IMG/VR virus record: IMGVR_UViG_3300048574_000149
Coordinates: 1 to 64,000 of that record
Direction: 5' to 3' (one strand)
Origin: a virus
Taxonomy: Duplodnaviria > Caudoviricetes
Length of the DNA stretch: 64,000 bases
Numbering within the stretch: position 1 is the stretch's first letter; each line of letters starts with the position of its first letter. The translations under genes and the position numbers were made by a program. Shown piece by piece: positions 2,617-49,850 of the stretch. The notes beneath the pieces are model-generated. The model was not told the origin of the DNA. It did not search any database and was given only the letters and a program-made list of their open reading frames with translations.

Positions 2617-3861
2617 CTAGGCCCGCTTGAGATTCTTGGCCAGGCTCTCGCGGTCCATCTTGAGCTTCTTGGCGATGGCCCGGATCGACAGGCCTTTGCC
2701 GCCCTTATGCAGCTTCACCGCCTGGGCGAGCTTCTTGGCGTAGGCCGTATTGGGCGTCATATTGGGCGCCGAATTGATCGCGGAGGCGAGATCGCCGCGC
2801 TTGGCGGCTTCGACAGCGAGATTCTTGGCGTTCTTCTTGACCTCGACGACCGAGACTGACTGCTTCTCGATCGGCTTCGGCAATGCCCGAGTAGCCTTTT
2901 TCTTCTTCGGCTTCGCTTTCTGCGCGATCGACTTGGTCGTGATCTTGGCGGCGACAGACGTATAATTCGACGCCTTCTCGCGGCCGACCTCGACCGTCTC
3001 CAGGATCCCGACGTGATTGCCAGCGATCACGTCCTGAAGGATCTTGGCGCTTTCAGGCAGATCCTCGATCTTGACGCCCGTATCGCGCAGCCGGATCGCT
3101 TCTTCCCTCGGCAGTATCGCCACGACGTGGTAGCGCGCGACGCGAATCTTGGAAGTCTCGTGCGGCACCGCAATCGCATCCGACGGTGAGAACTTGACCA
3201 GAGTGATGGCGCAGCCATCGCCGTAATAGCTCCGAATGTAGTTCTTGGAACAGATATGCAGTCCGGTGCTACAAGCGACCCTTGCCTCATCGACCTTGGA
3301 TTCGGGCATGAACACCAGCGAGCCGACCTTCTGGCGCACCTGGCGGGTGTGACAGTCGGTCATGTAGTCGTCGGCGTCCGGCGCATTGAGGATTTTGTAG
3401 CCGATCATGCTGCCATCGTCGGCGATCGGCAGATCGGTGCCTTGAAGGAACTTGAGAAGATCGTCGCTGCTGTGCTGGCGACGTTTCGCGACGACCGCGA
3501 AATTCGCCAGGAAGTTCTTGAGGGCCTTCGGATTGTTGTTATAGACCGTCTGCTCCACGATCTTGCGCAATCCTGCCCCTTTGAGCTTCTGGTTGCCCAT
3601 CTGAATCGCAACCTCGCCGTCAGGCTTGGTTTCGATCTTGATATTCGAGTTCACGCCGAGCATCTGCTCGACCTTCTTCTCCAGTGAGAACTGGGAAAGA
3701 TCGATTTCGGGATGCTCGCCGCGGCCGAGCTTCGGCATGACCGCGTCCACGATATCCTTGGTACGGTAGCTGTCCTGTGCAAAAACCTGCACCTGACCGT
3801 CTCCCAAGAACAGCGTCACGCCGTTCTTGCCGACAACGAGACCTGTGACCTTCTCAATCAT
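2617..3861 (-). CDS. rIIB: rIIB-like protein
   Basis: LPIADDGSMIGYK...CSTGLH...VAIP/KIRVARYHV rIIB-type motifs; ATGA overlap with rIIA; C-terminal HTH. Confidence 0.8.
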   Translation of the reverse strand: MIEKVTGLVVGKNGVTLFLGDGQVQVFAQDSYRTKDIVDAVMPKLGRGEHPEIDLSQFSLEKKVEQMLGVNSNIKIETKPDGEVAIQMGNQKLKGAGLRKIVEQTVYNNNPKALKNFLANFAVVAKRRQHSSDDLLKFLQGTDLPIADDGSMIGYKILNAPDADDYMTDCHTRQVRQKVGSLVFMPESKVDEARVACSTGLHICSKNYIRSYYGDGCAITLVKFSPSDAIAVPHETSKIRVARYHVVAILPREEAIRLRDTGVKIEDLPESAKILQDVIAGNHVGILETVEVGREKASNYTSVAAKITTKSIAQKAKPKKKKATRALPKPIEKQSVSVVEVKKNAKNLAVEAAKRGDLASAINSAPNMTPNTAYAKKLAQAVKLHKGGKGLSIRAIAKKLKMDRESLAKNLKRA

Positions 3862-6278
3862 GCTTTCTCCTTCTTGCGATACGATTTCAAATGACCTTCG
3901 AGAATATTTGCGAGCGCCTCGATCGAAGGTTTGTCGAGCGATCGGTCGTAGCTGCTCCGATATTCCGGACGAATGAAGCGCCAGAGCGATTCCAGATGTG
4001 CACAATCGCGGTCGCGCACGTCGCCGCCTAAAAGTGCAAAGGCCATTTCGCGCTTGCCGGGATCCTTGATCGCGTAAGCCGCATTCTCACGATGCGCCTG
4101 CAGATAGGTGTGAAACTCGAACCACTCATCCTCGTGCAAACCAAGGCTTCGATATCGGTCGCGATGGCGAATATTGAAAAACTCCAGAACGAGCTGCCAT
4201 AAGGCCAGGCGCTCGTCGCCGTCCTTTTGTTTCGGTGTCGGGAGCCCAATTGCCAGATGTGCCAGCCTTGTGTTGACGCTCATAAGTGCGATGGCGAGGC
4301 TCGTTGCCCTATCAATGCAATAGGGAACGTCGCGATGGGTTGCCATGAAGGGAATGAAGCCGTCTTCCGAAGCGTTTCGCTTCCAGGTGAACAATTTCTG
4401 GAGAAGGGCTTCTTCCAGGCTGATCGCGCCGAGCTTCTTGACTGTTTCAGCCTCGGAGAGATTGCGACACAGCACGGTCTGAGGAAAAAGCTTGAGAACC
4501 TTCTTCAGATTTTCCAGAGATCCGCGATCGATCGAAAAGACCAGATCGTTCTCAAGACCATTCCTAACCCTGCGCATGGATTTCGCAACGAAATAGACAC
4601 TCGGCTTCGCAATCTGCTTGGTTTCGTCCATCACGGCATAGACGCCGCTGCCGCAGCGATGCTGCCAGACATGCTTGAGAACGAGTTGCTGATAGGTCTC
4701 TGCCTTCGGCGCCGGCTTGACCTTCTTCTCGACCCGCTTCGGCGGGCGCATTGCGGAATAGGCGCTCGTTGAAAAGCCAAAGCGCTCGGCCGTCTTCTGC
4801 AGCGCCTCGATTTCCTCGCAGGTGATATCCTTCTTGACGATGAAGAAGCCTGCGGGCTTTTCATAGGCACTCTCGAAATCGGGACGTTGCGCGACCGAAA
4901 CGTGAGACACAATCCGGATGGAAAGGGCCGCATCCTGAAGACACAAGCCGGACAAATTGTTCTGTTTGCTGATTTTTTCCAACGCACCATGCGGTGGGCG
5001 ATACATCAGACAATCCTGAAGACCTACGGCTGATACTGCGCGCCACAGGCGCCGCAGAATATATCGGCTGCGAATTTCCCGTTCCGAGGTGTAGACCGCG
5101 TGTTTGGTCGCGACGGAATAGGCCCAGCTCGGTACGTTCTTCTTGATGCGGTGATCGTGAAACAAACGGTTCGCCGCCTTAATCAGAACCTCCTGACCGT
5201 TACTGCGCCCCAAAAGATAAAAGTGCGCAGCCACGACAGCGGTTGCCGGTCCGTAATAGGCGCCTTCAGGGGCTCGCATGGTCTTGCTGAGAAAATTTAG
5301 ACGAGTTGCTTTCTTCAGATGGTCATGAACGACACGATTCACCTCGTGCGCGGTACGACACCCGATCTGCTTGTCAGCCTTTTGAATCAGACCCTTCAGC
5401 GTCGCAATGGTCTTGGAATTGTAGTTGAGACCTTCGCGGTTCGGCATCGGGGTGATCGAGGAGGGCGGCGCGTAGAAAATGATCGCGCAATGCCCGCGGA
5501 AATGTTTGGTCTGAATTTGTCGCAAATCAGCATCGACCGCATCGTTGCTGATCGGGTACAGCACGTTGCCATAGAGCACCGAAAACGGAGTCTCGCCATG
5601 CAGCGAACCATAGCTCGCGCCATAGCCGTGCTTTTTCAGCTCGGAATAGTCGCGCCCGGAATGAAGCTCGCCGTTCAGAAGCAGCGTAATGCCGCCGGTT
5701 TTTGAGACGCGGCGGATCTTGTCGTCAAATCTGAGCCGATCCTTCGGCTCGATCGGCACCTGCACGCAAATGCCGGATTCTGTGGTCAGACCCTGCGTCA
5801 TCAGCCGCATCGAGGGAGCGCCGTCATTGACCTCCTCGTCGCCGACGGTGACGACATAGGTGTAGCGCGTGCCCTTGTGGTGATTGATGACGGTGAAATA
5901 GTCGCTGTAGGCGAAGGGAGACTTGGCGCCGAGCCCGAAGCCGCCGGTCTGGCTGTCATCGAGCTGCTTGGTCGAGCCGAAATAGGTGCAGTAGATATCC
6001 GCCATCTTCTTCGGGTCGATGCCGGCGCCGAAATCGCGCACCGAAAACTCAGCCTCGGTCAGCTTGACCTCGATCGGCCGCTCGATGCCGGCGGCGATAT
6101 GCGCGTCCTGCGCGTTACAGATGACCTCGCGAACGACGGCGAGGGGAATGTCGCTGTAGAGCCCGGCCGAGAGCAGCTTATAGGCCTGGGCCGAAGCGTG
6201 GATCTTGAACGCCTCGGCGGGCGCTGCGCCGCCGACTAGCGCGTATTTGTCGCTCGAAACTTCCGAAGAAACCTGCAT
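3858..6278 (-). CDS. rIIA: rIIA-like protein (N-terminal GHKL/Hsp90-like ATPase)
   Basis: LYSD..AVVREVICNAQDAH, VRDFGAG, STK, GGFGLGAKSPFAY; adjacent to rIIB. Confidence 0.85.
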   Translation of the reverse strand: MQVSSEVSSDKYALVGGAAPAEAFKIHASAQAYKLLSAGLYSDIPLAVVREVICNAQDAHIAAGIERPIEVKLTEAEFSVRDFGAGIDPKKMADIYCTYFGSTKQLDDSQTGGFGLGAKSPFAYSDYFTVINHHKGTRYTYVVTVGDEEVNDGAPSMRLMTQGLTTESGICVQVPIEPKDRLRFDDKIRRVSKTGGITLLLNGELHSGRDYSELKKHGYGASYGSLHGETPFSVLYGNVLYPISNDAVDADLRQIQTKHFRGHCAIIFYAPPSSITPMPNREGLNYNSKTIATLKGLIQKADKQIGCRTAHEVNRVVHDHLKKATRLNFLSKTMRAPEGAYYGPATAVVAAHFYLLGRSNGQEVLIKAANRLFHDHRIKKNVPSWAYSVATKHAVYTSEREIRSRYILRRLWRAVSAVGLQDCLMYRPPHGALEKISKQNNLSGLCLQDAALSIRIVSHVSVAQRPDFESAYEKPAGFFIVKKDITCEEIEALQKTAERFGFSTSAYSAMRPPKRVEKKVKPAPKAETYQQLVLKHVWQHRCGSGVYAVMDETKQIAKPSVYFVAKSMRRVRNGLENDLVFSIDRGSLENLKKVLKLFPQTVLCRNLSEAETVKKLGAISLEEALLQKLFTWKRNASEDGFIPFMATHRDVPYCIDRATSLAIALMSVNTRLAHLAIGLPTPKQKDGDERLALWQLVLEFFNIRHRDRYRSLGLHEDEWFEFHTYLQAHRENAAYAIKDPGKREMAFALLGGDVRDRDCAHLESLWRFIRPEYRSSYDRSLDKPSIEALANILEGHLKSYRKKEKA

Positions 6279-6306
6279 TGAAGACTGCCCCGCTGTGCTG
6301 ACAATA

Positions 6307-6350: not shown

Positions 6351-6355
6351 ATCTT

Positions 6356-6964: not shown

Positions 6965-6965
6965 G

Positions 6966-8775: not shown

Positions 8776-9746
8776 GCCACGTTCTCCAAGTTTTCGTTCG
8801 GCAGCGTCTTGCGATGTTGGATCCAACCCTTGAAATTGCCGTGCAGGTGCCAGTTGTCCCATTTCTTGACCGCTTTTCGCGCGCTCGGGCCTTCGCTGGC
8901 ATCCACTACGATGTGTTGAGTGTCCGGCGTTGCCTGATGCTCGGCCGGCGAAGCGTGAATCGGGTGTGAGCCGACGAGCTGGTCGTAAAGCGCCAGATCC
9001 GCTTTGATCGAGGGCTTGGCGCCGTCATGCGTCAGATAGGAGACGCGGGCGCAACGGGCGACAGAAACTCGCCTGGCGACATCGATCAGATCCAATTCAT
9101 GCTCGATGGCGTACTGATCCATCTGGCTCAGATCCTCAGAACCACCGATTACGTTATAAAAATCGACGTAAGGCAGGTGCCATTCGCCTGGCGCAAGCGG
9201 TTGCCAGATGCCAGTTGCCATCGCGATCGCCATGCAGCGCGCCAGCTCTTGAATCTCCGGCTGGGCGTCGGGGTGAGCGCGCAAGCCGAACCAATTCTTC
9301 CATTCGGTCGAGGTGACCAGCACATTGATGTGGGAGAACGGTTCCAGCAGACGATTGACGATCTGCTTGTGGTAGCCAGCTTCGGAGAACGCGCGGGCCA
9401 TATCGATTGCCTGATCGCGCGCGAGAAGCCACGCCGTGTGATTCTTGGCGTACCCGTATTGATCACCCCATAAGGTATCCGACAGATCAATGGTTGTCGC
9501 ACACTCCTCGTCAGCCTGCATGCCCTTCTGATTCTTGCCCCAGTGGATCGGCATCGCGGTGTCGTTGATGATGTCCTGAATGAGCCGCTCGACCGGGATC
9601 GCGCGCGAGGAGCTCGCATTGCGACTGAAAACCCGGTGCGTCATCAGCTCCGCGTGAATGAAGCGCGGATAGCGGAGTTGCATGGTGGTCAACTTGATGC
9701 CCTCGGGCGACACCGAGCCGGCAATCATCTTGGCGGAAATGGTCAT
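8772..9746 (-). CDS. thyX: Flavin-dependent thymidylate synthase (phage ThyX-like)
   Basis: ELMTHRVFSRNASSSR signature, LR..DAQPEI, ARCARVSY, HASPAEH. Confidence 0.9.
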   Translation of the reverse strand: MTISAKMIAGSVSPEGIKLTTMQLRYPRFIHAELMTHRVFSRNASSSRAIPVERLIQDIINDTAMPIHWGKNQKGMQADEECATTIDLSDTLWGDQYGYAKNHTAWLLARDQAIDMARAFSEAGYHKQIVNRLLEPFSHINVLVTSTEWKNWFGLRAHPDAQPEIQELARCMAIAMATGIWQPLAPGEWHLPYVDFYNVIGGSEDLSQMDQYAIEHELDLIDVARRVSVARCARVSYLTHDGAKPSIKADLALYDQLVGSHPIHASPAEHQATPDTQHIVVDASEGPSARKAVKKWDNWHLHGNFKGWIQHRKTLPNENLENVA

Positions 9747-9985
9747 AGCGTGGTGTAGTCCTTGCGCAGCGTTGCCAGTGAGTTGAGCACCGACAGAACA
9801 TCGGTGACCGAGACGCGCGACGTGCGCGAAACCAGCACCGCGATGGTGCTCATTTTGAGCCCAGCCTTCAGCATGGCGTCGGTGTTCTGGCTGATCTTGA
9901 CGATCGCCTCGGCGAGAATCTTGGCGTCGACCGGCGCCTCGGGATTTTGCTCGACGATCACTCGCCGCGCTTTGGAAGCTGACAT
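9743..9985 (-). CDS. Hypothetical protein
   Basis: ORF from MSASKARR, coupled to thyX. Confidence 0.65.
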   Translation of the reverse strand: MSASKARRVIVEQNPEAPVDAKILAEAIVKISQNTDAMLKAGLKMSTIAVLVSRTSRVSVTDVLSVLNSLATLRKDYTTL

Positions 9986-18293: not shown

Positions 18294-18499
18294 CGTTCTT
18301 TTTCCATAAAATCACCGCCGGAGAAGGCGCCAATCTCGGGCTTGCCATCGACGATATTGAGCCAGAACAGCCCGTCATCCTGATCCTGCTCGGCGTGAAT
18401 CTTCTTGGCCATTTCCATCTGCGCTTCGGGCGAAGAAAACGGACCAATCATGTCCGGATCGACACAGCCAAACACTGAAACGAGCCAATAAGTTTTCAC
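18290..18499 (-). CDS. Hypothetical protein
   Basis: Coupled ORF. Confidence 0.65.
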   Translation of the reverse strand: MKTYWLVSVFGCVDPDMIGPFSSPEAQMEMAKKIHAEQDQDDGLFWLNIVDGKPEIGAFSGGDFMEKER

Positions 18500-20433
18500 G
18501 ACACAGCCTCCTCAACCGCCGCGACGCCACCCTTCTTACGGAAGACCATCGAGTTGCGGCACCAATCCTTCAGCTCGTTGTGGCTGATGATGAACACAGA
18601 TCCACGCTCGCGCGCTTTCTCCTCCAGGATCATCATCAGACGCTCCAGGCCGGCGACATCGAGCGCGTCGTCAATCTCGTCGCCAATGAACAGGTCAATC
18701 GGCTTGGTCGCGCGCCGAGCGACCAGGTCCTGAAGGGCGAGGGCGCAGGCGATCCGCACCTTGCGCTTCTCGCCGCCGGAGATTCCCTTGAAGGTGTCGG
18801 CGCCGTGTGCGTTCGTGACCTCGATGGAGAATTTCTCCTTCAGCTCACCCTTGCCGTTTTTGACCAGGGTCGACCAGGTCGCGGTGATATTGCCGTCGGA
18901 CAGCGTGCCGAGATATTTCGCGGTCTGGTCGTTGAGGAAAGGCGTCACCTCGTCGAGCAGGAAGGCCCGCACGCCGGCTGGGCTGAACACCTTGTGCGCG
19001 GCCTCGGCGATCTTGACGTTCTGCTCGGCATCTTTGACGTTGGCCTCGGCGGCATCCTTGTCCGCTTCGGCCTTGGTCAATTTGGCATTGGCCTCCTGCA
19101 CCATCGCGATGAAGGGATTGACCTTTGCCTTTTCAGCAAGCGCCAGATTCTTGAGATTCTCGCGCGCGGCCCGCTTCATGGCGATATTGCTCTCGATATT
19201 GGTAATCTGATCGAGTTCGGCCTGCCGCGACGCGCGGGATCGATTTGCCGCGCTGACATCAGTCATTGACGCTTTGAACGCATCCCGTGCGTCTGTCGCT
19301 GTTTTTGCGCTCGCATTCGCATTGGAAACAGCGATCATCGCTTTCGCAGCTTGCTCGCGCAGCATTTCCGCTTTCGTCTCGGCGATCTTCTTTGCCGGCG
19401 CGATATCGGCCGCGCTGTAGGGGCGGTTGCAGGTCGTACAGGGACAGCCGACCTGGTGATCCGCCAGCGCCACGCTTTTTACAGCGTCATCATGTGCCTT
19501 TCGGGCGATCGCTAGGTCCCGATCGGCGCCGGCGGCTTCGGCCGATGTCGTCGTGATCTTGCGTTCCAGCTCCGCCAGGGTCTTTTGCTCACCAGCGACG
19601 GCACCGATCGCCATATCGAGCGAGCGAATGTCCTCCTCGATCGAGGCGCGTGCATCGTGAGATTTGAGGAGCGTTTCCAGGGTTGCGATTTCGCCGTCGA
19701 TCGCCTTGGCCTGGCCGACGAAACTGCGGATCGTCTCGACCCGGTCGTTGTCGAACTTGAAAACGCCCTTCTTGGCGCTCTCCATCGCGTCCTTGATATT
19801 GTCGATCAGGGACAGCAGGGAATTGCGCGTGGTTACAGTCGCGTCGCGGTCGCGCATTGCGGACTGCAAGCGAACAGCCGCTTCCTTGTAAGCCGCTTCG
19901 AGAATGGTGGCGCCGGACGCCTCCTCGATCAGCATCTTGAGGGTCTTGTCGGTCATGCCGGGCAGGTCGGGCATGCGTTCCTGACCTGCATAGATCGCCC
20001 CGCAGAAGACCTCGTGCGAGCAGCCGACGATCTGATTGATGACCTCCTGGGTCAGCTTCTCGGTGCCCTTGGTCAGATCCTTCGAGACGGGATCGGTCGT
20101 GTCATAGACCCAGGTGGAATTCTTGAATTTCTTGTCCTTCCGATAACGCTGGATGACATAGGTCCGCGCGTCATCCTCGATCTGGAGCTCGACCTTGGTG
20201 CCACCCTTGCCGAAGCGATTAACGACTTTGTCGCCATCCTCGCCGCGGGCGGTCACGCCATAGAGACACCAGGAGATCGCATCAGCCATTGACGACTTGC
20301 TGGCGCCATTGGAATTGGCCGATGTGTCGTCATCATTGACGCCCTGCACAGCCACAAGCCCGCGATCAGCGAGGTTGATCTTTGCCTCGCCGATACCCAT
20401 GAAATTGCGAATTTCAACGCTGTGCAGTTTCAT
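18496..20433 (-). CDS. sbcC: SbcC/Rad50/gp46-like SMC ATPase
   Basis: NGASKS Walker A, coiled coils with CTTC zinc hook, SGGE signature, FIGDEIDDALD, ISH. Confidence 0.9.
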   Translation of the reverse strand: MKLHSVEIRNFMGIGEAKINLADRGLVAVQGVNDDDTSANSNGASKSSMADAISWCLYGVTARGEDGDKVVNRFGKGGTKVELQIEDDARTYVIQRYRKDKKFKNSTWVYDTTDPVSKDLTKGTEKLTQEVINQIVGCSHEVFCGAIYAGQERMPDLPGMTDKTLKMLIEEASGATILEAAYKEAAVRLQSAMRDRDATVTTRNSLLSLIDNIKDAMESAKKGVFKFDNDRVETIRSFVGQAKAIDGEIATLETLLKSHDARASIEEDIRSLDMAIGAVAGEQKTLAELERKITTTSAEAAGADRDLAIARKAHDDAVKSVALADHQVGCPCTTCNRPYSAADIAPAKKIAETKAEMLREQAAKAMIAVSNANASAKTATDARDAFKASMTDVSAANRSRASRQAELDQITNIESNIAMKRAARENLKNLALAEKAKVNPFIAMVQEANAKLTKAEADKDAAEANVKDAEQNVKIAEAAHKVFSPAGVRAFLLDEVTPFLNDQTAKYLGTLSDGNITATWSTLVKNGKGELKEKFSIEVTNAHGADTFKGISGGEKRKVRIACALALQDLVARRATKPIDLFIGDEIDDALDVAGLERLMMILEEKARERGSVFIISHNELKDWCRNSMVFRKKGGVAAVEEAVS

Positions 20434-20834
20434 CCGATTTCCACTGCTCCGTCTGCTTCGCGCTTGTCCGCGCAGCTCGGGCAATACCCGTCGAAGCCAT
20501 CGCCGACGGTGCCCCATTCCGGCGAGCCCTCGACCGCTGAGCAGCCTGGACAGACGACCTTGTCCCCGTCCCCGTCCTCATCTTCATCGCTGCCTTTATC
20601 CAGATCAGTTCCGGCGAACGTCACCCAGCGCCAACCCAAAACATAGGCACCGTTACCGTCACCTTCCGAAATCAGGGCGTTATCAACCTCAAAGCGCTCG
20701 TCACGGGTTTCGACCAGCGCCGCGACCTGCTTGTCGCGCTCGGTTGCTTTGCTATCGAAGAAGAAGAGACAATCCGAAAGTGTCAGTCCTTCGATTGCTT
20801 CAAGCTGCGTGTGCTTTGGATTCGGCTCGCTCAT
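20430..20834 (-). CDS. Hypothetical acidic protein with C-terminal zinc ribbon
   Basis: CPGC...CPSC. Confidence 0.65.
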   Translation of the reverse strand: MSEPNPKHTQLEAIEGLTLSDCLFFFDSKATERDKQVAALVETRDERFEVDNALISEGDGNGAYVLGWRWVTFAGTDLDKGSDEDEDGDGDKVVCPGCSAVEGSPEWGTVGDGFDGYCPSCADKREADGAVEIG

Positions 20835-21211
20835 TACGCATCCTCCAGCGCCGAATTGATCGTGGCGGCAAAGTCACCACGCTTGGCGCCTTCGACGGTC
20901 TCGTCGCGCGCGACTTCCAGATCCTCGCTGGTCTTGGGCTCACCCGACGGCTTCCAGTGTCGTGCAGTGCGTTCGCGCGCGGAAGGAACTCGGCCGATCT
21001 TCTCGGATTTGCCTTCGACGGCATGTGCCTGTCCGACGATTTCGACCTGGGCGTCCGGAAATTTCGTTTGATAGGAAAGCGCCGTCGAGTGGGGCAGGTC
21101 GTGATAGACCTGCGGCAGCAACACAACTTCCTCGGCGACCTTGTTTCCACTCGTATCGAAACGGGAAATGATCTGCTTGCGGACCATCTTCACCGTATAA
21201 AGCTGGCTCAT
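20834..21211 (-). CDS. Hypothetical protein carrying the shared VEAAKxGDLASAINS-type motif at its C-terminus
   Basis: ORF after the promoter at 21245-21275; ends VEGAKRGDFAATINSALEDA. Confidence 0.75.
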   Translation of the reverse strand: MSQLYTVKMVRKQIISRFDTSGNKVAEEVVLLPQVYHDLPHSTALSYQTKFPDAQVEIVGQAHAVEGKSEKIGRVPSARERTARHWKPSGEPKTSEDLEVARDETVEGAKRGDFAATINSALEDA

Positions 21212-29889: not shown

Positions 29890-30019
29890 CTTTGGTCCTT
29901 GATCCTTGGTGACTTGCTGCTTTGGGTTCTTTGTCCTTGCTCCACCGCCAACCAGAGTTAGCGATTTCGCTATTTCGTTAATATAGCAGCTTTTGCACGG
30001 GAGTGATTGGAAATCGAAC

Positions 30020-30033
30020 AGTCAGTTATGACT
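30020..30033. promoter_or_regulatory. AGTCA-N4-TGACT operator (SSB)
   Basis: AGTCA GTTA TGACT upstream of the -10 at 29980-29987. Confidence 0.85.
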
Positions 30034-30044
30034 GGTCGCCATGT

Positions 30045-30416: not shown

Positions 30417-30417
30417 A

Positions 30418-30960: not shown

Positions 30961-30974
30961 GACGGGTCTCGGAA

Positions 30975-30988
30975 AGTCAGTTCTGACT
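30975..30988. promoter_or_regulatory. AGTCA-N4-TGACT operator
   Basis: AGTCA GTTC TGACT next to GCTATATT. Confidence 0.85.
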
Positions 30989-31007
30989 GACAATATAGCG
31001 CGAAAAA

Positions 31008-34000
31008 TCAGGCAGCGATCAGGGACGCGACGGCGAGAAAGACCTCGTTCATCGGCACCTGCTTTTCGGCGTCATGATAGATTTCGCCTGGATTGAAGCC
31101 GATGACCAAATTGACATCCAAGTCCTTGTTATAAAAGACCTTTCCGGCGGAATCTGACGCCTTGCCCTTCAGATCGGGCAGGAAGTGGCGTACCACCTGG
31201 GAGCCGAGCAGGACGATCGCCGGCGGCTTCAACACCTCGATCTCGCGTTGCAGATAGGGCAGGTAGGTCGCGCTCTCGGCCGCGGAGACCTGCTTGCCTT
31301 CCTTTGGGCGCTTGATCATCGAGGTCCAATAGGCGTCGTTGCGCGACAGACCGGCGGCTTGCAGCGCCTGCGCGACGTTCTGAAAGCTGTCCGACAAAGT
31401 GAGCTGACCATTGCGATCTTCGCCGTTCGTCGGCGCGTCGCTGATCACCATGAATTTCCCCTCCTTGCCCCAGAGAGGGTTGATCGGCATACCATCATTC
31501 TGGTGCTTGGTCTTGTATTCGGCGACGATCATCGCCACCGCCTTCTTGGTCTCCGGATCCGTGTGCATGTCGCGCTTGACCGGCACCAGGCTCGAAATCA
31601 GCCCAGGGATCAACTCGCGCTGATCCTTGATCCGATCGGGGTGATCGGGCGCGATTTGACCAGGCTCGATCCGCGCGAAGGCGCCGATCGCATCGAGCTT
31701 GGTCTGGTGCCCGATATTGCAACGACGCTTCTCGACCCGCGCCAGGAAGTCGGCCTTGTCCTTGAAGGGACCCGCCGCTCGCGCTTCCAGGATCGCCTTC
31801 GTCGTGTTGTCGCCGATCCCCTTGACGCGCCCGAACGGAATGCAGAGCGTCGTGGAATTGAGGATCTCGAACTCGGAAGACGAGACGTTGATATCCGGCG
31901 GGCTCACGGTGATGCCGAAATCGTTGGCATCCTTGAGAATGCCCGGCAACTTGTCCTCTTTCAGAAGCGACAAGGTCGCGGCATAGAACTCGACCGGGAA
32001 ATAGGTCTTGAGATACATCGCCTGATAGGAGATTAGCGCGTATTCGACCGAGTGCGACTTGTTGAAGCCGTAGCCGGCGAAGCCCTCGATCTTGTCGAAC
32101 AGGTCGCCCGCCCAGGCTTCGGTCGCGCCGACCGTCTTGACGCAGCCCTCGACGAACTTGCCGCGCTCCTTCTTCATTTCTTCGGGCAGCTTCTTGCCCA
32201 TGATCTTGCGCAGCTTGTCGGCGTCGGGGGCGCTGTAGCCCGCGATCGTCCGCGACACCTGCATGACCTGTTCCTGATAGACCATCACGCCGAAGGTGGG
32301 TTTCAGGATCGGCTCCATCAGCGGGTGATCGTAATCGACCGTCTCGACGCCCTGCTTGCGGCGCCAATAGCTGTCCATCATCCCCGATTCCATCGGACCC
32401 GGACGATAGAGCGCGGTCGCCGCGGTGATATCGTCGAAGGAGATCACGCCATCCTTGCCGAGCTCCTTGAGCAGGCGCCGCATGCCGCCGCCGTCGAACT
32501 GAAAGATGCCGGTGGTGTTGGCCTTGGCGAAATTGTCGAGCACCTTCTTGTCGTCGAGCGGAATCTGCCACAGATCGGGCGCGGTCGAGTGCATCTTGCG
32601 GATATAGCGCAGCGCCAGGTCGATCACGTCCAGTGTTTCAAGCGACAGCACGTCGACCTTGACCAGACCCTGATCCTCGATCGTGCGCTTGTCCCAGTTG
32701 ATCGCCGGAAAATCCTTGCGCCGCTCGATTACGCCGCGTTCGACAAGATCGCAGCCTCCAACCACGATACCGGCGGCGTGCGAGCCGAATGACGCGATGG
32801 ATCCTTCAAGACGTAAAGCGACGTTCCACACTGCCGGGTGGGCGTCGCGATAAGCTCCGATCTCCGGGACAACGTCAGCCGCCTTGGCCAGCGGTATATT
32901 TTGTCCATGCAGCTTGGGGACAAATTTAGAGCAGCCATAATCGCGGTCGTCTTGCCCGAACGCCTTGCCGACTGAGCGAATGGCTGCTGCGGTCGCAAGC
33001 GTGTTAAAATTGGAGACGCCAGAAACGCGCGCTGCGCCATACTTGCCGACGACATACTGGATGACCTCGCCGGTCCTTGCAGACATGAAATCCAGGTCGA
33101 TGTCGGGAAGGTCGATGCGGTCCGGGTTAATGAACCGCTCAAAGAGAAGTCCAAATCGAAGCGGGTCACAGTCGGTGATGCCCATGAGATACGCAATGAG
33201 GGAGCCGCCGACAGAACCACGTCCAGGGCCGACAAGGATGCCGTTCGATTTCGCATAGCGCACGATGTCCTGCACGAGAAGGAAATAGCCGGAGAAGCCG
33301 AGTTTCTGAATGACGCCCAGCTCGTATTGCAGGCGCGGCATATAGACATCGCGCAATTCGTCGGCCGACGGCTGGTGGCCGAAGGTGGTCTTGTAGAGAC
33401 GCTCCTTGAAGCCCTTGCGGCATTCCTCGACCAGCGCCTTGTATTCATCGGGCGCCATGATCGGCAGCGACACCTTCTGTTTCGACCAACAATACGTGAC
33501 CTTGTCGGCGATCACCGCGGTATTACGCAGACCCTTGCCGAAGCAGGGCGACGCCGGCAGACCGCTGACGGATCCGCCGCGGCGGCGCTCGATGCGCTCG
33601 GCCGCCTCCTTGCAAGCGGTGACCATTTCCGCGGCGTCGAGAGGGTAGAGATCGCGATATTGCGGCTTTGGGCACCAGGTCGACAGCAGCGGCTCGTTGT
33701 CGGCGATCGCGCGCATGACCATGTTGGCGTCGGCCGGATGCGCGCCGGTGCCGTCGTGCCGCGGATAACAGATGGGCCGGGTGACCAGCAATTCGAGCCC
33801 CGCGGCGCGCGAGGCGTAATCGATGGCAATTTCGTTGATGCGGTCGAAGTAGGGAGTGTTGACCGGCACCAGGCTCAGATAGACGCCGGCGCCGCCGAGC
33901 GCGATGCGAAGCATGGCGAGCTGATCGAGCGCCTGCGGGTGATGCAGGTAGCCGTTGATATCGCCCGACGCAAAGGCGAGGTCGTTCGCGTCTAAGCTCT

Positions 34001-34397
34001 CCGTGCGGATCTCGTTGAAGATATCGCCCATCGACAGCTTGGCGTCGAAATAGAAGCGATCCTCGGAATTGGCGAGGGTGAGCAGGCGCAGCAGCGCCTT
34101 CATGCCCTTCTCGGACAGGACGTAGCAGGTCAGGAAATATTCAGGCGGGCGCTTCTTGTCCTCTTTGGTCTTGCGCCAGGTCGGATCGTCGACGATCCGC
34201 AGCCGGGTGCCAATGATCGGCTTCACACCGGCTTTCTTGCAGCGATTGGTGAAATCGATCATTGAGGTCACCGACATGGTGTCGGTTACTGCGATCACCG
34301 ATGCGCCGGCGGCTTTCGCCTTGTCGACAAGGTCGTCGACCGAAAAGATCGATTCGCCGACAGAGTATTCGGTGCGCGCTGCGAAAACGGTGTGCAT
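31008..34397 (-). CDS. dnaE: DNA polymerase III alpha subunit with C-terminal UDG-like domain
   Basis: GPGRGS, FERFINPDR..LPDIDLDF, HAAG, KVDVL, ALYRPGP, YQEQ, YGFNKSH; degenerate PHP N-terminus. Confidence 0.95.
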   Translation of the reverse strand: MHTVFAARTEYSVGESIFSVDDLVDKAKAAGASVIAVTDTMSVTSMIDFTNRCKKAGVKPIIGTRLRIVDDPTWRKTKEDKKRPPEYFLTCYVLSEKGMKALLRLLTLANSEDRFYFDAKLSMGDIFNEIRTESLDANDLAFASGDINGYLHHPQALDQLAMLRIALGGAGVYLSLVPVNTPYFDRINEIAIDYASRAAGLELLVTRPICYPRHDGTGAHPADANMVMRAIADNEPLLSTWCPKPQYRDLYPLDAAEMVTACKEAAERIERRRGGSVSGLPASPCFGKGLRNTAVIADKVTYCWSKQKVSLPIMAPDEYKALVEECRKGFKERLYKTTFGHQPSADELRDVYMPRLQYELGVIQKLGFSGYFLLVQDIVRYAKSNGILVGPGRGSVGGSLIAYLMGITDCDPLRFGLLFERFINPDRIDLPDIDLDFMSARTGEVIQYVVGKYGAARVSGVSNFNTLATAAAIRSVGKAFGQDDRDYGCSKFVPKLHGQNIPLAKAADVVPEIGAYRDAHPAVWNVALRLEGSIASFGSHAAGIVVGGCDLVERGVIERRKDFPAINWDKRTIEDQGLVKVDVLSLETLDVIDLALRYIRKMHSTAPDLWQIPLDDKKVLDNFAKANTTGIFQFDGGGMRRLLKELGKDGVISFDDITAATALYRPGPMESGMMDSYWRRKQGVETVDYDHPLMEPILKPTFGVMVYQEQVMQVSRTIAGYSAPDADKLRKIMGKKLPEEMKKERGKFVEGCVKTVGATEAWAGDLFDKIEGFAGYGFNKSHSVEYALISYQAMYLKTYFPVEFYAATLSLLKEDKLPGILKDANDFGITVSPPDINVSSSEFEILNSTTLCIPFGRVKGIGDNTTKAILEARAAGPFKDKADFLARVEKRRCNIGHQTKLDAIGAFARIEPGQIAPDHPDRIKDQRELIPGLISSLVPVKRDMHTDPETKKAVAMIVAEYKTKHQNDGMPINPLWGKEGKFMVISDAPTNGEDRNGQLTLSDSFQNVAQALQAAGLSRNDAYWTSMIKRPKEGKQVSAAESATYLPYLQREIEVLKPPAIVLLGSQVVRHFLPDLKGKASDSAGKVFYNKDLDVNLVIGFNPGEIYHDAEKQVPMNEVFLAVASLIAA

Positions 34398-34498
34398 CAA
34401 TCAGCCTTCAAATTGTAGATGGTGACGCGGCGCTGCACTGCGTTGTTGCCGAAATACAGCGTGATGGAATTGACCGGGACGAAATCCGCCTCGATCAC
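34397..34498 (-). CDS. 33-aa peptide
   Basis: GTG start overlapping the upstream TGA; stop overlaps the dnaE start. Confidence 0.4.
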   Translation of the reverse strand: MIEADFVPVNSITLYFGNNAVQRRVTIYNLKAD

Positions 34499-45061: not shown

Positions 45062-45064
45062 GGT

Positions 45065-46165
45065 CTAATCCAGCCTCCCGTGTGGATGGAAGTCGACGGC
45101 AACCGGGAAGCGAGGCATACCATCGGGGGTCGGGGTGAAGTGGCGAATGGTGACCTGACGCTTGTCGCTCCAGTTCGGCCATTCCTTCAGCAGCTCGGCA
45201 GCGCGCGATTGGGTGCCGCGAATACCGGCACCACATTCGCGCCCGTCGGGCAGCGTGAACACGACGCGCTTCGCATAGCCGGCCCAGTTACCCTGACCCT
45301 CCTCGATGCGAGCGAGCGGAAATTCCGCGGTGATGAATTCCTTGCGCTTGAGCAAGGTCTTGGAGCGCTTGTCGACCTCGTAGGGCTGATCGAGCCGCAC
45401 CATCTGGCCCTCATAGCCCTGCTCCAGATATGCGCCGTAATGTCCGTCAAGCTCCGCCTGGTCGAGCGCCTTGTGCGTCACGACCGGAACGATCGAGGGC
45501 ATCGTGCGCTCGCCGAAGATGGTCTTGAACAGAAAGAGATTGCGGGCCGAGAAATACTCGACCGCGTAGGATCCAGCCACGTCATAGACGTGATACTGAA
45601 TCAGCTTCGCTGCCTCGGCGCGCTTCTCCTCGTCGACGTTCTGCTTCCGCACGATCGAGGTGATCTTGTTGAAATCATCCTTTAGATCGTGATTGTAAAG
45701 CTCACCGTCAAACACCACGCCTGGGAATTCTTGGAAGATCGGCGCCAGCGCCTTCAGAATATGATCGACGTTGTAGTGGGTCTGATAGTCGCGCGTGAAA
45801 GCACCATCCTTTGTCACCAGCGCCCGGATCCCGTCGAGCTTGGGCTGCGAGAAGACCGGAAACTTGATCGCCTTCTGCTTGGCGAAATCCTGGGCCAGCA
45901 TCGGCGACATCGGCACGCCATCGAGCTCCTCGACAGTCCGACGATATTGCCGATCGAGCTTCTTCTTAAACTCGGCCTGCGCCTCGAACGCCGCCTGTTC
46001 CTCGTCGGTCGCTTGCGATTTCGCCTTGCAATCGGTCCAGGCGCTCGTCACGGGCGCCCCACCCTCGATGCCGGCGATCGTGCGATAGCGCGGCCCTTCG
46101 ACCTCGTATTGCCAATAGCGAGTCTTGCCGACTGAATCGCGCTGATAAATCTTGTCCGAGATCAT
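45065..46165 (-). CDS. lig: ATP-dependent DNA ligase
   Basis: PMLA, QPKLDGIR, FDGELY, YEGQMVR, KRS..LLKRK, OB tail PRFP. Confidence 0.93.
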   Translation of the reverse strand: MISDKIYQRDSVGKTRYWQYEVEGPRYRTIAGIEGGAPVTSAWTDCKAKSQATDEEQAAFEAQAEFKKKLDRQYRRTVEELDGVPMSPMLAQDFAKQKAIKFPVFSQPKLDGIRALVTKDGAFTRDYQTHYNVDHILKALAPIFQEFPGVVFDGELYNHDLKDDFNKITSIVRKQNVDEEKRAEAAKLIQYHVYDVAGSYAVEYFSARNLFLFKTIFGERTMPSIVPVVTHKALDQAELDGHYGAYLEQGYEGQMVRLDQPYEVDKRSKTLLKRKEFITAEFPLARIEEGQGNWAGYAKRVVFTLPDGRECGAGIRGTQSRAAELLKEWPNWSDKRQVTIRHFTPTPDGMPRFPVAVDFHPHGRLD

Positions 46166-46698
46166 TTCTGCTCCTCGTTATTGATGGCCGACGCCAGATC
46201 GCCGGTCTTTGCAGCCTCGACAACAGCATCCGTTGCAACGGGACCCGCGGGTGCGGCAGCAACAGGCGGCGGGGTGTATTTCGGAATGCGCTTCGTCGCT
46301 GGCGCGCCGCTACGGGCACGCTCATTGGCGAGAAGCAGCAATTCACGTTCCCGATCGGAGCATTTGGCATCCTCGATATGCCGATCGATCACCGTGATCC
46401 GCGCGATGCGATTCAGGTCGACGGCATCGAGCTTGCCGAGGCTCATGGCGTTCTGAGAGTGATAGGGATCGCATTCCTCACGCAGCATCCGGTTGAGAAT
46501 GTGCGGGATCGGGCATTTGCTTGAATGCAGCGCCGCCTGACAGCCCTTGCGAACTGCGACTTCCTCGCCGCGCCAGACCTTGTCGCGCAATTGAAAACAC
46601 GGCGCGATCGCGACCTTGGTCTCGAAGATCGGACAGACGAAGCTGAACTGATTTTCCGGATCCAGGGTCTTGGAATGAACTGGATTGATGACGGCCAT
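46162..46698 (-). CDS. Cys-containing hypothetical protein with the shared motif at its C-terminus
   Basis: Ends VVEAAKTGDLASAINNEEQK. Confidence 0.75.
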   Translation of the reverse strand: MAVINPVHSKTLDPENQFSFVCPIFETKVAIAPCFQLRDKVWRGEEVAVRKGCQAALHSSKCPIPHILNRMLREECDPYHSQNAMSLGKLDAVDLNRIARITVIDRHIEDAKCSDRERELLLLANERARSGAPATKRIPKYTPPPVAAAPAGPVATDAVVEAAKTGDLASAINNEEQK

Positions 46699-47264
46699 TA
46701 GAACATTCCCCAAGCCGGATTGTCGTCAAAGCGCCGCGCGGCAGCTTCGGTTTCCTGGCGCGCGCGTTCTTCCTCCCGCTCGCGCAAGAGCCGATCCTGT
46801 CGCTCCAGCTCCTCGGGTGGAGTCGGAATTGGAGCTGTTTCTGCTTTCCAGGAACCGTCGGGGCGCTGCGCGAATGTCGTTGGTCGATGCGCGGCGGCGC
46901 CGGTCGTGTCGATTTCGTCGGACAGGAATTTCAGATCATCGGGATCGAGCTTCGGCCAATATTGACCAAGCTCGGCTTTGAACTCCCGCTCGTTGATGAC
47001 CTTCTTTTCGATGAGGGCAAATTGCTTGTAGCCCTTGCAAGGCGAAAACTTTTCCCGCTCCTTATTGGCGAATTCGTCGGCGATCTCTGTGTAGGAGCCT
47101 CGAACGACGTTCCAGCCAGTGCCCCAGGAATGAGCCTTGCCCCAGCGCTGAATAAGAAGCGCGCGATTGCCCTCCGCCAGGATCAGCACCTGGTGATAAT
47201 CCTTTCCGCCTGATGCGGAAGGCGCGCGATAGCTCACCTTCCTGATCATCATGGGAAATGGCAT
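46698..47264 (-). CDS. WGR-domain-like protein with C-terminal WGxF
   Basis: GGKDY...LIQRWGK...EK..KGY; ends NPAWGMF. Confidence 0.7.
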   Translation of the reverse strand: MPFPMMIRKVSYRAPSASGGKDYHQVLILAEGNRALLIQRWGKAHSWGTGWNVVRGSYTEIADEFANKEREKFSPCKGYKQFALIEKKVINEREFKAELGQYWPKLDPDDLKFLSDEIDTTGAAAHRPTTFAQRPDGSWKAETAPIPTPPEELERQDRLLREREEERARQETEAAARRFDDNPAWGMF

Positions 47265-47316
47265 TACGGATCCTCTCGCTCGCTGTGTCTGTCGCGATTG
47301 ATATAGCGACTTTTCA

Positions 47317-48447
47317 CTAGGAGTGAGAGTCAGTCCTGACTGTTGCCAATCGCTGGAAATATGGGTTCTTCACGCGCCAGAGAATGTCGATCTCGGGGCT
47401 GTAACGGGTCGCCTCCCAAAATGCGCGGCGCACCACGTCTGTCGTGACCTCGTTGGGATCCTTCTCGGCCGGCAGCAGAGCGATCTTGGCGATGATCCCG
47501 ATGCCCGTCAGAAGCTTGGCCGCATCGAGCGCCGAAATCAGCGCCGCAGGCTCGCCGTCCCACATGATCGTGACCTCGCGCAGCCCGGACGCTTTGAGCT
47601 TGATGAAGGCGCCGAGCTGGTCGTTACCGTCTGGATCGCCGTAGCTCAGGTGCTTGCCGAACGAGCCGATCGGCACCACGTCGCGTAACGCCACCTCCCC
47701 ATCGAGCGCCGTCTTGATGGCGATCACGTCGAAGGCGCCCTCTCCCATACAGGCACGCTCGACGCTTGTGGCGTTTTGCCCGTTGAACAAATATCTGCCG
47801 GTTCCTGGCAGGCCGGACGGAAACAGATATTTCTTGTCGCCGACTAAACCCGTGACATCGCGGCCCTGAAAGGTGACCAGCTTTCCCTCCAAATCGAAGA
47901 CTGGGATGATTACGCGGTTGTTGAAGTTCTGCCGGCCTGACGTGCCGTCGATATTGGTGAACCGCCAGACACCCTTTACGCAGCAACGCAAGTGAAAGAA
48001 CTTCGCCAGCTCGCCGGTGATGTGGCGATCCTCCAGATATTGCAGGTTTCGCCCGTCGGGCGTCGGCAGCTCGAAGGATTCCGGCAGCTCGACGCTGTCC
48101 ATGACGACCGCGGCCGTCGTGGTGCGCTTGGGGCGCCAGCCCTGCTCTTTCAGAACATCGCGGACATAGTCGTAGGTTCGGCCCCAGTCGCGTTTGCTTT
48201 CAGGGTCGTGGCCTAGATACAGATGGATGAACTTGATGTTGTTGAAGGTCTCATTACAGACGAAGCAGTTTCCCCGCCTGGTGTCCTCGCCCATATAGGT
48301 TCGATAGCGGCCGTCACCGCAATTCGGGCAGGTCTGGATCTGGAACTGCATACCGGAACGACCGCGGGAGCGCTTGTAACCAATGCTCTCGCGGTCGAGC
48401 CAGTATTCGAAATCCAGGTTGTCGCTGAGCTCCTGATTGTCGCTCAT
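47317..48447 (-). CDS. DNA primase (zinc finger + TOPRIM)
   Basis: CPNC..CFVC, RVIIPV, FQGR, GEGAFD, WDGE, KDPNE. Confidence 0.9.
   Translation of the reverse strand: MSDNQELSDNLDFEYWLDRESIGYKRSRGRSGMQFQIQTCPNCGDGRYRTYMGEDTRRGNCFVCNETFNNIKFIHLYLGHDPESKRDWGRTYDYVRDVLKEQGWRPKRTTTAAVVMDSVELPESFELPTPDGRNLQYLEDRHITGELAKFFHLRCCVKGVWRFTNIDGTSGRQNFNNRVIIPVFDLEGKLVTFQGRDVTGLVGDKKYLFPSGLPGTGRYLFNGQNATSVERACMGEGAFDVIAIKTALDGEVALRDVVPIGSFGKHLSYGDPDGNDQLGAFIKLKASGLREVTIMWDGEPAALISALDAAKLLTGIGIIAKIALLPAEKDPNEVTTDVVRRAFWEATRYSPEIDILWRVKNPYFQRLATVRTDSHS
47328..47341. promoter_or_regulatory. AGTCA-N4-TGACT operator inside the primase 3' end
   Basis: AGTCA GTCC TGACT upstream of the -10 at 47301-47307. Confidence 0.85.
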
Positions 48448-49850
48448 ACCCGCCCCAGGACCTTCTTGATGAATTTCATCCGTGAGCGATCCTGCTGGAT
48501 CCGGATCGAGAATTCGCCTTCCTGGTTGCGCGAGGCCGCGAAGTAGAGCCTGGCCTCGCCGGCAAGGACCTCTGCCTCGGTGGCCGAGATCGAGATCACC
48601 AGATCGGCGTGCCGGACCTTGTTGATGTCTTCGGCGACGTTTTCAGCCTTCACGGTGACCGCCTTAAAGCCCTCTCGATTGGACTGGGTGGCCGTCAGAA
48701 CGGCTGCATTTTCTTCCGTTGCGATCGCGCGCAAAGCGAGCCAGATCGAGTTGGAGTTCTCTCGCGCCACGTCGCTCTTATCGTCGGGCGCCATGATGTC
48801 GGCATAGTCAACCACGATCACGTCGAAGATGATGCCGCGCGTGCGGTAATTCGCGATCAGCCGGCGCAACTGCGACGGCGTAAGCGTTCCGCTCGGGAAT
48901 TCATGGATCTTGATGTGACCATGCCGAGTGGAATCGTAGAGCCGCTCGATGATGGACTGGACGGACTTGGCGCTCTTGCGCAGCTCCTTCATCATCGTAT
49001 CGGCGAGGTTGGCATCGATACGATCGGAATAGATGCGCGCCGATACCTCGCAGGAGCAGATCAGCACGTTGAAGCCAGCCATCGCTGCGTTCTTGGCGAA
49101 ATCGCCAAGACCCATCGACTTGCCTTTCTTCGCCGGCGCCAGGAGTGCTGAGACTTCCTTGCGACCCCAGCCCTGGTGCATCAGCTCGCGGTCGAGCTCA
49201 GGGATGCCCGTCGTAATGCCGTCAGGCTTGATTAGCCCGCATTCGAGCGCCACGCGATGATCGGTGCGGTTCCCGATTTCCTTCCAGTAGTCGTACTCGC
49301 CGCCGTTATCGGACAAGCCGACCTGTAGCGCCTGAGAGACCAGCTTCTCGATCCTGCCGAAATCACCCTTCTGCAGCGCCGAGACCGACGCGATGATCGC
49401 GTTCTCCATCGCCCGATGCCTGGCAAACTCCGCGACCTTGTCGGCCACGAAGTCGCGATCAGACGGCACCCGCCCGGTGATGATTTCGCGCAGCCGGTCG
49501 CGAATGAGCGGAACCAGATCGGAACGAATCCGCTTCTTCGCCAGCTCGTCCTTCAGGACGTAGGTGAGCGAGGCGAGATCGGGGGATTTCTTGTAACGCT
49601 TGAAGAAATCAGTGACGACCTTGGCGATCGCGCCGTCGACCTCGCTGGAGAAGTATTCCGGCTTGATTAGACCGTCGACCTTCCCCATGAACACGCTGTC
49701 TTTGGTCGCAAGCGCAAGGATCTGAGCCTGAAAGCGCTCGTCGAACTCGAATGGCCGCTCCTTCTCCTCGACGGCCGCGGGAACGGTCGACGGAGAGGAA
49801 ATGGCCGAGCCGAGCTCGCCCTTCTTGGCAGCTTCGACGACGGCGGTCAT
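48444..49850 (-). CDS. DnaB-like replicative helicase
   Basis: APAKKGKS Walker A, VVDYAD, TATQSNR, AEDINK, SRN. Confidence 0.92.
   Translation of the reverse strand: MTAVVEAAKKGELGSAISSPSTVPAAVEEKERPFEFDERFQAQILALATKDSVFMGKVDGLIKPEYFSSEVDGAIAKVVTDFFKRYKKSPDLASLTYVLKDELAKKRIRSDLVPLIRDRLREIITGRVPSDRDFVADKVAEFARHRAMENAIIASVSALQKGDFGRIEKLVSQALQVGLSDNGGEYDYWKEIGNRTDHRVALECGLIKPDGITTGIPELDRELMHQGWGRKEVSALLAPAKKGKSMGLGDFAKNAAMAGFNVLICSCEVSARIYSDRIDANLADTMMKELRKSAKSVQSIIERLYDSTRHGHIKIHEFPSGTLTPSQLRRLIANYRTRGIIFDVIVVDYADIMAPDDKSDVARENSNSIWLALRAIATEENAAVLTATQSNREGFKAVTVKAENVAEDINKVRHADLVISISATEAEVLAGEARLYFAASRNQEGEFSIRIQQDRSRMKFIKKVLGRV

Follow-up and report, generated by a model that had tools for sequence, protein, structure and literature searches.

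A 15-residue peptide shared by otherwise unrelated proteins of rhizobial phage-plasmids, a candidate docking tag

The first 64 kb of the virus record IMGVR_UViG_3300048574_000149 (119,013 bp, 59% G+C, with direct terminal repeats) encodes four otherwise unrelated proteins that share a peptide of ∼15 residues, here called the tag. We refer to this whole 64-kb stretch as the window and to the genome to which it belongs as G000. The carriers are an rIIB protein, a 125-aa protein, a 178-aa protein, and a DnaB-like replicative helicase, and the core of the tag can be written Phi-x-x-A-A-x-[ST/KR]-G-[D/E/N]-[L/M/F/Y]-x-[A/S]-[A/T]-[I/L]-[N/S] or, more narrowly, Phi-x-x-A-A-x-[ST]-G-D-[LM]-x-A-A-I-[NS]. 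The tag is real, conserved, and mobile between proteins; it is selected as a peptide, is absent from host proteomes, and changes in concert within genomes. We read it, at a probability of roughly 45%, as a portable short linear docking motif recognized by one receptor, so that its carriers would be recruited to a common hub.

An earlier sequence-only reading of the window had reported four copies of the peptide. All four are on the minus strand, with the same coordinates and letters as it gave (Table 1), and plus-strand translation at these coordinates yields no such peptide. They are also the only copies in G000, based on a six-frame scan of the whole 119,013 bp with a strict and a middle pattern. 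A degenerate DNA pattern found 4 sites in the window and none in any of 100 dinucleotide shuffles. When all open frames of at least 50 aa in G000 were scanned with a tag profile, the four copies scored 19.1 to 30.0 bits and the next best frame 5.7 bits. Across nine genomes, carriers scored 15 to 30 bits and everything else 7.5 bits or less, leaving a clean gap in every genome. The sequence-only reading had named similar scores in shuffled or host proteomes as evidence that would count against the tag; none comparable arose among the shuffles or, outside mobile elements, in five Hyphomicrobiales host genomes (∼25 Mb, six frames). In these host genomes, all nine matches at an E value of ≤0.0011 lie in phage-plasmid contigs or small prophage-like elements, and three further matches (E values of 0.09 to 0.6) are partial and lie in ordinary proteins. 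A generic scan for shared terminal 12-mers was noisy, with 1.5 to 3.5 pairs per shuffled proteome; it detected no second clique besides the tag in G000 or W01 and no clique at all in W03, W04, and G007, where it missed the tag itself.

The four carriers fall into separate BLASTP families, and no alignment between families reaches 40 aa. The rIIB protein was identified by its profile match and by the adjacent gene (3858-6278), which encodes a GHKL ATPase domain and whose homologue in Rhizobium phage RHph_X66 (X66) is annotated as rIIA. Its start is probably the ATG at 3861, while the listed open reading frame (ORF) extends to a TTG at 4005. The helicase was identified by a DnaB_C domain together with a full-length match to phage DnaB-like helicases. 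Its start codon, the ATG at 49850, shares bases with the upstream stop (ATGA) and is the sole in-frame start ahead of a conserved FEFD block, and we therefore conclude that the tag is a translated part of the helicase. The 178-aa gene is flanked by an ATP-dependent DNA ligase gene (45065-46165) and by the gene at 46698-47264, which has an X66 homologue annotated as WGR domain-containing. Neither the 125-aa nor the 178-aa carrier matched Pfam or PHROGs; homologues of the latter belong to the precomputed Pfam family PF26983, and the N-terminal domain of the former gave only weak leads in the ESM Atlas (DUF4494; template modeling scores of 0.36/0.51). The sequence-only reading had further held that the tag always sits on a flexible terminal extension. 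The tags do follow disordered linkers, but the rIIB copy lies in an internal basic linker, ∼50 residues short of the C-terminus, and is followed by a short segment at the C-terminal end that resembles a helix-turn-helix; in this copy the extension is not terminal.

Table 1. Tag copies in the window and the genes that carry them
Feature	Position	Strand	Basis or context
Tag copy in rIIB, VEAAKRGDLASAINS	2770..2814	-	Translation; profile 25.0 bits
rIIB gene	2617..3861	-	PHROG rIIB family PHROG 2886, E = 2e-75
Tag copy at C-terminus of 125-aa protein, VEGAKRGDFAATINS, followed by ALEDA and stop	20852..20896	-	Profile 24.7 bits
Gene of 125-aa carrier	20834..21211	-	Between Rad50/SbcC-like (18496-20517) and Mre11/SbcD-like (22788-23846) genes
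Tag copy at C-terminus of 178-aa protein, VEAAKTGDLASAINN, followed by EEQK and stop	46177..46221	-	Profile 30.0 bits
Gene of 178-aa carrier	46162..46698	-	Cys-containing domain (residues 12-131), disordered linker, tag
Tag copy at residues 4-18 of DnaB-like helicase, VEAAKKGELGSAISS	49794..49838	-	Profile 19.1 bits
DnaB-like replicative helicase gene	48444..49850	-	Pfam DnaB_C, 1e-12; PHROG 19, 1e-71

The window belongs to a clade of rhizobial phage-plasmids of ∼110 to 122 kb, of the RHEph10/RHph_X66/B1VFA type. The nearest relatives of its helicase (45 to 51% identity) are those of Rhizobium phages RHph_X66, B1VFA, V1VFA-S, RHEph10, RHph_N1_10, and RHph_Y2_11, and farther relatives occur in Stenotrophomonas and Pseudomonas (Nickievirus) phages and in the Salmonella phage-plasmid SSU5. 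B1VFA and V1VFA-S have been published as phage-plasmid-like, and RHEph10 features in the phage-plasmid literature. We compared the whole genomes of G000, six IMG/VR relatives, and four named phages and also searched four further Rhizobium phages and SSU5. The tag is present in 13 of 13 members with alphaproteobacterial affinity, at 2 to 5 copies each: 5 in G006 and X66; 4 in G000, G001, G004, V1VFA-S, and B1VFA; 3 in G007, Y2_11, N1_10, and RHEph10, as well as in G002, which has one doubtful copy in addition; and 2 in G008. It is absent from all three gammaproteobacterial relatives searched (Stenotrophomonas phage BUCTxx99, Pseudomonas phage Nican01, and SSU5), and BUCTxx99 and Nican01 encode no BLASTP homologue of rII or of either small carrier. 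Named Ancylobacter and Phyllobacterium contigs match G004 and G008 in both the tags and their coordinates, indicating that the hosts of the clade are Hyphomicrobiales.

Six protein families carry the tag, which has been gained and lost on different, unrelated proteins among these relatives, in line with the portability proposed from the sequence alone. Two families are always tagged. The 125-aa family, encoded between the Mre11-like and Rad50-like genes, is tagged in all 13 genomes, never more than 7 residues from the C-terminus; this count includes the orthologues from the 8 other whole genomes in the BLASTP comparison, all of them tagged, and, in B1VFA, RHph_Y2_11, RHph_N1_10, and RHEph10, a tagged frame of 117 to 123 aa placed in the family by length only. 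The 178-aa family, encoded between the ligase and the WGR-like gene, is likewise tagged in 13 of 13 genomes, the G008 variant AASSGDMAAALNA included. The rIIB protein is tagged in 11 of 13 genomes (not in G007 or G008), 48 to 109 residues from its end, with a weak copy in B1VFA (14.5 bits). A head-module family (PHROG 916), encoded directly after the major capsid gene, is tagged in 7 of 13 genomes, G000 not among them, and the helicase in G000 only; the helicases of its relatives begin at the FEFD block. Two additional small ORFs, one in X66 and one in G006, are also tagged. Absence of the motif from orthologues, which the sequence-only reading would have taken as a mark against the tag, is not the pattern we observed: the tag is kept by 12 of the 13 homologues that a database search gave for the 178-aa protein (34 to 52% identity), and it stays at the end of the tether, down to 34% identity, while the linkers themselves cannot be aligned. 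The three homologues of the 125-aa protein in a large protein database, one of them from a 520-bp contig and possibly cut, have a diverged, longer form, G-x-D-M-x-x-x-[LI]-N-K-x-L-E-x-A.

Comparison of the copies supports the earlier suggestion that selection acts on the peptide rather than on the DNA. Within G000, the copies share 58 to 82% of their nucleotides and 7 to 13 of 15 residues, and the differences fall mostly at third codon positions; the rIIB and 178-aa copies, for example, differ by seven synonymous and two nonsynonymous codons. Where two copies have the same residue, the codon is identical at 157 of 310 positions, versus 134.6 expected from codon usage. Codon choice is thus nearly independent between copies, which argues for selection on the peptide, and homogenization of the DNA explains little. 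We also compared copies within and between nine lineages. Copies from different families within one genome are more alike (mean identity, 10.0 of 15 residues) than orthologous copies from different genomes (9.15 of 15). When genome labels were shuffled within families, the permutation mean was 8.88 (standard deviation, 0.20), and only 1 in 10,000 permutations reached the observed 10.0, or 0 in 10,000 when N1_10 was left out. The simplest cause of this concerted change is a single constraint shared by all copies in a genome, imposed by one partner that varies between lineages, and the pattern is thus an added argument for a single shared partner. The resulting dialects are distinct: VE[AG]AK occurs in all four G000 copies and in no other genome; RHEph10, Y2_11, and N1_10 have I-[NS]-x-A-A and GDM[TS]AAI; and X66 and B1VFA have GDLAAAI, though their host genus, Rhizobium, is the same as that of RHEph10, Y2_11, and N1_10.

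The form of the tag is that of a short linear motif, a conserved island of ∼15 residues in variable, disordered sequence, with the evolutionary plasticity expected of a motif that is gained and lost on unrelated proteins. An AlphaFold2 model of the 178-aa protein (six sequences) gave a domain at residues 12 to 131 (predicted local distance difference test [pLDDT], 75 to 84), a linker at residues 132 to 157 (pLDDT, <40), and a tag that is modeled as a helix (158 to 165), Gly166-Asp167, and a second helix (168 to 176) at a pLDDT of ∼50, not docked on the domain. The predicted arrangement agrees with the helix-turn-helix that had been proposed from the letters. No Pfam family matched any of eight tag tails at an E value of ≤10, and a search of PDB and BFVD with the 178-aa model gave no matching fold at an E value of ≤0.001.

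Based on these observations, we infer that the tag binds a partner and that the partner is single. In the mechanism that we favor, the tag would be a pair of short helices joined by Gly-Asp and hung on a disordered tether, and each carrier would bind the same receptor surface through it. The Mre11/Rad50-associated protein, the ligase-associated protein, rIIB, and the head-module protein would in this way be brought to one hub, as would the replicative helicase in G000. The receptor is probably encoded by the phages and coevolving with the tag, rather than encoded by the host, because the dialects differ among phages of the same host genus. A more elaborate version, which we hold as a possible but doubtful extension, is a private recruitment network that resembles clamp and PIP-box wiring around a hub of no known family, with one phage-encoded receptor and lineage dialects; proteins would join or leave it by 15 residues, as the helicase did, and small elements would plug a head-module protein into it.

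Several observations weigh against a dedicated docking motif of this kind. A receptor was sought among peptidase, clamp, RecA, and von Willebrand factor A (vWA) candidates and by phyletic profiling, and none was found. The bare string AAxxGDLAAAI is frequent inside helices of unrelated high-GC proteins, with at least 120 loci in a scan of genome contigs; read by eye, ∼114 of the matches listed are ordinary internal helices or out of frame. Because this core string recurs in unrelated high-GC helices, part of the form of the tag is simply that of a good helix-turn-helix, and its distinguishing mark is accordingly the complete 15-mer placed at a tether end rather than the bare 11-mer. The differences between dialects are conservative (L/M and A/S/T) and could reflect drift, and codons are identical slightly more often than expected, which would allow for some old gene-to-gene copying. 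A nearly invariant form of the tag, AAATGDLAAAI, also ends a Phage_TAC_11-like protein of small prophage-like elements in diverse Hyphomicrobiales. The genes that serve replication and repair in the large phages are missing from these elements, which fits a receptor in the host or the virion better than a replication hub; one host genome has a tagged small element but no large phage-plasmid.

The small elements form a second class of carrier genome. A loose DNA pattern matched 68 loci in IMG/VR, comprising 16 large-clade contigs, 11 small-element contigs, and 41 loci read as chance, and a strict 13-codon pattern had no IMG/VR match. The 11 small-element contigs are 13 to 58 kb long, nine of them ≤19 kb. 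Their carrier, a protein of ∼130 aa whose gene has the portal gene on one side and a protease-capsid fusion on the other, ends in ...AAATGDLAAAI[SRN]xxY/LxD..., with the tag 9 to 10 residues before the stop; all three of those tested matched Pfam Phage_TAC_11. More such carriers are present in Agrobacterium, Nitratireductor, and Aquamicrobium genomes.

A different function for the tag would be that of a degron or protease handle, delivering carriers or their linkers to a phage HslV-like peptidase, to host HslUV, or to another AAA+ protease and so timing or limiting early proteins and assembly chaperones. We consider this unlikely. An HslV/proteasome-like Ntn peptidase, encoded next to a ParA-like gene, is present in 11 of the 13 tag-bearing genomes and in neither outgroup searched (BUCTxx99 and Nican01), and the chaperone-like TAC_11 carrier would fit a protein that needs removal. 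The peptidase starts with MTTIAL in G000 (96084-96602, plus strand, outside the window); that of MW960030 is at 9460-9969, and N-termini are MTTIAL or MSV.... However, its Pfam Proteasome match lies below the family cut-off, and G001 and G008 lack the peptidase yet have 4 and 2 tags. Host HslU tails end in ..NTDLSR[YF]IL and have only D-L-x-x-x-I in common with the tag, a likeness of 3 in 7 residues that includes no aromatic and that depends on a free C-terminus, which the rIIB and helicase copies do not offer. No HslU-like gene was noticed in annotation tables or family scans of the phages, in which no HslU profile was run, and a complex prediction for three copies of the G004 peptidase with a 178-aa family tail scored 0.02, which counts neither way. 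If the tag were instead a capsid-targeting signal, it would bind the procapsid interior or scaffold, and its carriers would be packed and injected with the DNA. A head-module family whose gene directly follows that of the major capsid protein, with a tagged copy in 7 of 13 genomes, points in this direction, as does the only carrier of the small elements, whose gene occupies the usual place of a scaffold gene; several carriers also have basic Lys/Pro/Ala-rich linkers like those of injected internal proteins, and a phage-encoded capsid receptor would permit dialects. Set against this, the universal carriers belong to early DNA metabolism modules, one would hardly expect a hexameric replicative helicase as cargo, BLASTP detects no similarity between small elements and large phages in their capsid and portal proteins, and a literature search found no virion proteome for the clade, and we think encapsidation a rather improbable role.

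The tags might also need no separate hub, if they bound each other or the folded domain of a universal carrier. Such stickers would account for the retention of at least two tagged proteins in every large genome and for the concerted change within genomes, and the layout of domain, disordered linker, and tip resembles that of self-interacting hub proteins. Two helices of ∼7 residues are short for a stable bundle, though, the model leaves the tail undocked from the domain of the same protein, and the small elements have only a single carrier, all of which makes this reading improbable. Finally, there may be no partner at all, the peptide being a product of chance or composition in an Ala-rich, high-GC proteome or the by-product of a DNA or RNA element. 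The many AAxxGDLAAAI-like strings in unrelated proteins are what such a process would leave. We nevertheless regard this as very improbable, given the shuffles without a match, the score gap in every genome, the host genomes without a match outside mobile elements, the tether-end position kept in distant orthologues, and the low nucleotide identity and near-random codon choice of the copies. The docking motif is the reading that we prefer. A literature search of article texts returned only one unrelated match for tag strings and no described shared peptide for phages of the clade, and the articles listed for shared linear motifs in phages held nothing relevant.

Three receptor candidates were considered. 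The 243-aa protein at 50136-50867 (minus strand; PHROG 2500, function not known) is not a sliding clamp, as its model is all-helical and of low confidence (pLDDT, 54). Its gene is directly upstream of the helicase gene in all clade members, and it is a candidate helicase loader. Mimicry of the RecA N-terminal helix was suggested by a D-[VIL]-A-x-A-[LI] pattern shared by eye, but the tag profile ranked no RecA N-terminus above background. In the CobT-like vWA protein of G002, considered for the vWA/MIDAS idea, a tag-like string, EAAKTGDLAAAL (15.3 bits), lies inside an inserted Ig-like domain and is probably a chance match, since G007 shares the inserted domain without the string; CobS and CobT are also present in tag-free outgroups. 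In both proteins (G002, 29191-31914; G007, 93777-96497), the insertion of ∼100 residues interrupts a proline-rich hinge and looks Ig-like (IPT/TIG). Phyletic profiling left too many clade-specific candidates to decide among, including rIIA, ParA-like, RepC, sigma-like, HD phosphatase, and ThyX proteins and several unknowns.

Besides the carriers, the window encodes a gp32-like single-stranded DNA-binding protein (SSB), a RecA-like recombinase, a UvsY-like protein, Mre11- and Rad50-like proteins, a RuvC-like resolvase, a 5'-3' exonuclease, DNA polymerase III alpha, a primase, an ATP-dependent ligase, RepC, rIIA, a CobS/MoxR-like ATPase, a CobT/vWA protein, a sigma-like factor, and PhoH; the ParA-like ATPase and the structural genes of G000 lie outside it, further along the genome. 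The DNA polymerase III alpha (31008-34400, minus strand) is fused to a C-terminal domain of the uracil-DNA-glycosylase superfamily (Pfam UDG, residues 981-1088). The 1,297-aa protein encoded at 57625-61518 (minus strand) contains Laminin_G_3 and SPRY stretches, two of each, and has DUF7483 at its C-terminal end; it probably acts in host recognition or as a fiber.

What the small elements have in common with the large phages is confined to parts of the tail tip, namely, the tape-measure C-terminus and lambda gpM- and gpL-like proteins. The last ∼50 tape-measure residues are 40 to 77% identical between small elements (L020, L032, L048, L051, L073, and L076) and large phage-plasmids, and the gpM-like and gpL-like proteins are 36 to 77% identical, so that the tail tip is a mosaic module. 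A second shared terminal peptide, GLDPEFDR[AE]GLRALKxKI, is found in large phages at the end of the frame that immediately precedes the tape-measure gene (MW960030, 32636-33049), a frame that is probably a frameshifted tail-chaperone product. It also ends a 207-aa post-capsid protein of small elements (L032, 10063-10773, minus strand; L048; L079; L276), with 62 to 83% identity over 21 to 32 residues between large phages and small elements; G000 has a diverged form at 76024-76449 (minus strand), outside the window. Unrelated cellular proteins have endings that recall the tag: mycobacterial proteins of ∼300 aa (L197, L225, L226, L235, and L239) end in AA[LM]SGDLAAAI[RK], and haloarchaeal proteins of 157 to 197 aa (L218, L237, and L271) end in AAEDGDLAAAIsrle. 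These proteins may show the full-domain fold to which the helix pair belongs.

Wiring of clients to a hub by tags is well known for sliding clamps and SSB and has rarely been described for phage proteins outside T4. The clade studied here is a clean natural example, with a sharp 15-residue signature, two always-tagged carriers of unassigned function, lineage dialects, a clear recent gain (in the helicase), and a clear recent loss (in rIIB, in two genomes). If the docking reading is true, the hub would tie head assembly and the long-enigmatic rII proteins to the modules of the ligase and of Mre11/Rad50, and the tag would be a portable handle for bringing cargo to that hub. The hosts of these phage-plasmids are agriculturally relevant rhizobia.

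Among known systems, the SSB C-terminal tip has the same layout as the 178-aa-type carriers, in which a folded domain is joined to a short conserved tip by a long, disordered linker rich in Pro and Ala. In SSB, however, the tip belongs to the hub and the pockets to the clients, whereas here many clients carry the tip, and the SSB tip is an acidic cluster, compared with one acidic residue in the tag. The gp32-like SSB of the window (28891-29889, minus strand) itself has a long Ala/Pro-rich linker and an acidic-hydrophobic tip, ..DVDALLNSLG (..D[AD]ILAELDNL in relatives), and this tip is also present in tag-free outgroups. Capsid-directed peptides offer another comparison. The T4 capsid-targeting sequence is N-terminal and is removed by the prohead protease, with its carrier found in virions, and the HK97 protease tail and the C-terminal helix-turn-helix of P22 scaffolding protein dock onto the capsid interior. 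These resemble the tag as terminal peptides on unrelated proteins or as short helix-turn-helix elements, and some tag carriers are head-module genes. The tag differs from them in being mostly C-terminal, in having no evident cleavage site, and in its carriers, which are mostly proteins of DNA metabolism.

Other motifs resemble the tag in local sequence. The UBA/TS-N domain is a three-helix bundle of ∼40 residues with a helix 2-GD-helix 3 signature, A-x-x-x-x-G-D-[LI]-x-x-A-I, and has the same turn between helices; the tag consists of two short helices in ∼15 residues and, as noted, its tails match no Pfam family. Helix-hairpin-helix DNA-binding motifs have a G-Phi-G hairpin between their helices, and in every copy of the tag the turn consists of one Gly and then Asp. 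The HslU tail likewise has D-L-x-x-x-I near the C-terminus, and the phages encode an HslV-like peptidase; it requires the extreme C-terminus and an aromatic residue three from the end, where the tag has Ala, and the tags end 0 to 109 residues before the stop or sit at the N-terminus.

A further parallel is with the clamp-binding motifs, which comprise the beta-clamp motif (QL[SD]LF or QLxLxL), the PIP box of PCNA clients, and the gp45-binding tails of T4 gp43, gp33, and gp55. Like the tag, these are short terminal peptides on unrelated proteins that address one hub and are gained and lost in evolution; their clients belong to replication, repair, and transcription. Unlike them, the tag has no Gln or aromatic pair, and its carriers include rIIB and a head-module protein. 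None of the listed tag copies contains the beta-clamp consensus, and no clamp gene appeared in annotation tables and family scans, for which no clamp profile was searched. By analogy, we suggest that the tag would work like clamp-binding and PIP motifs or the gp45-binding tails of T4, as a motif that is not a member of those families or of the UBA/TS-N, helix-hairpin-helix, or HslU-tail motifs.

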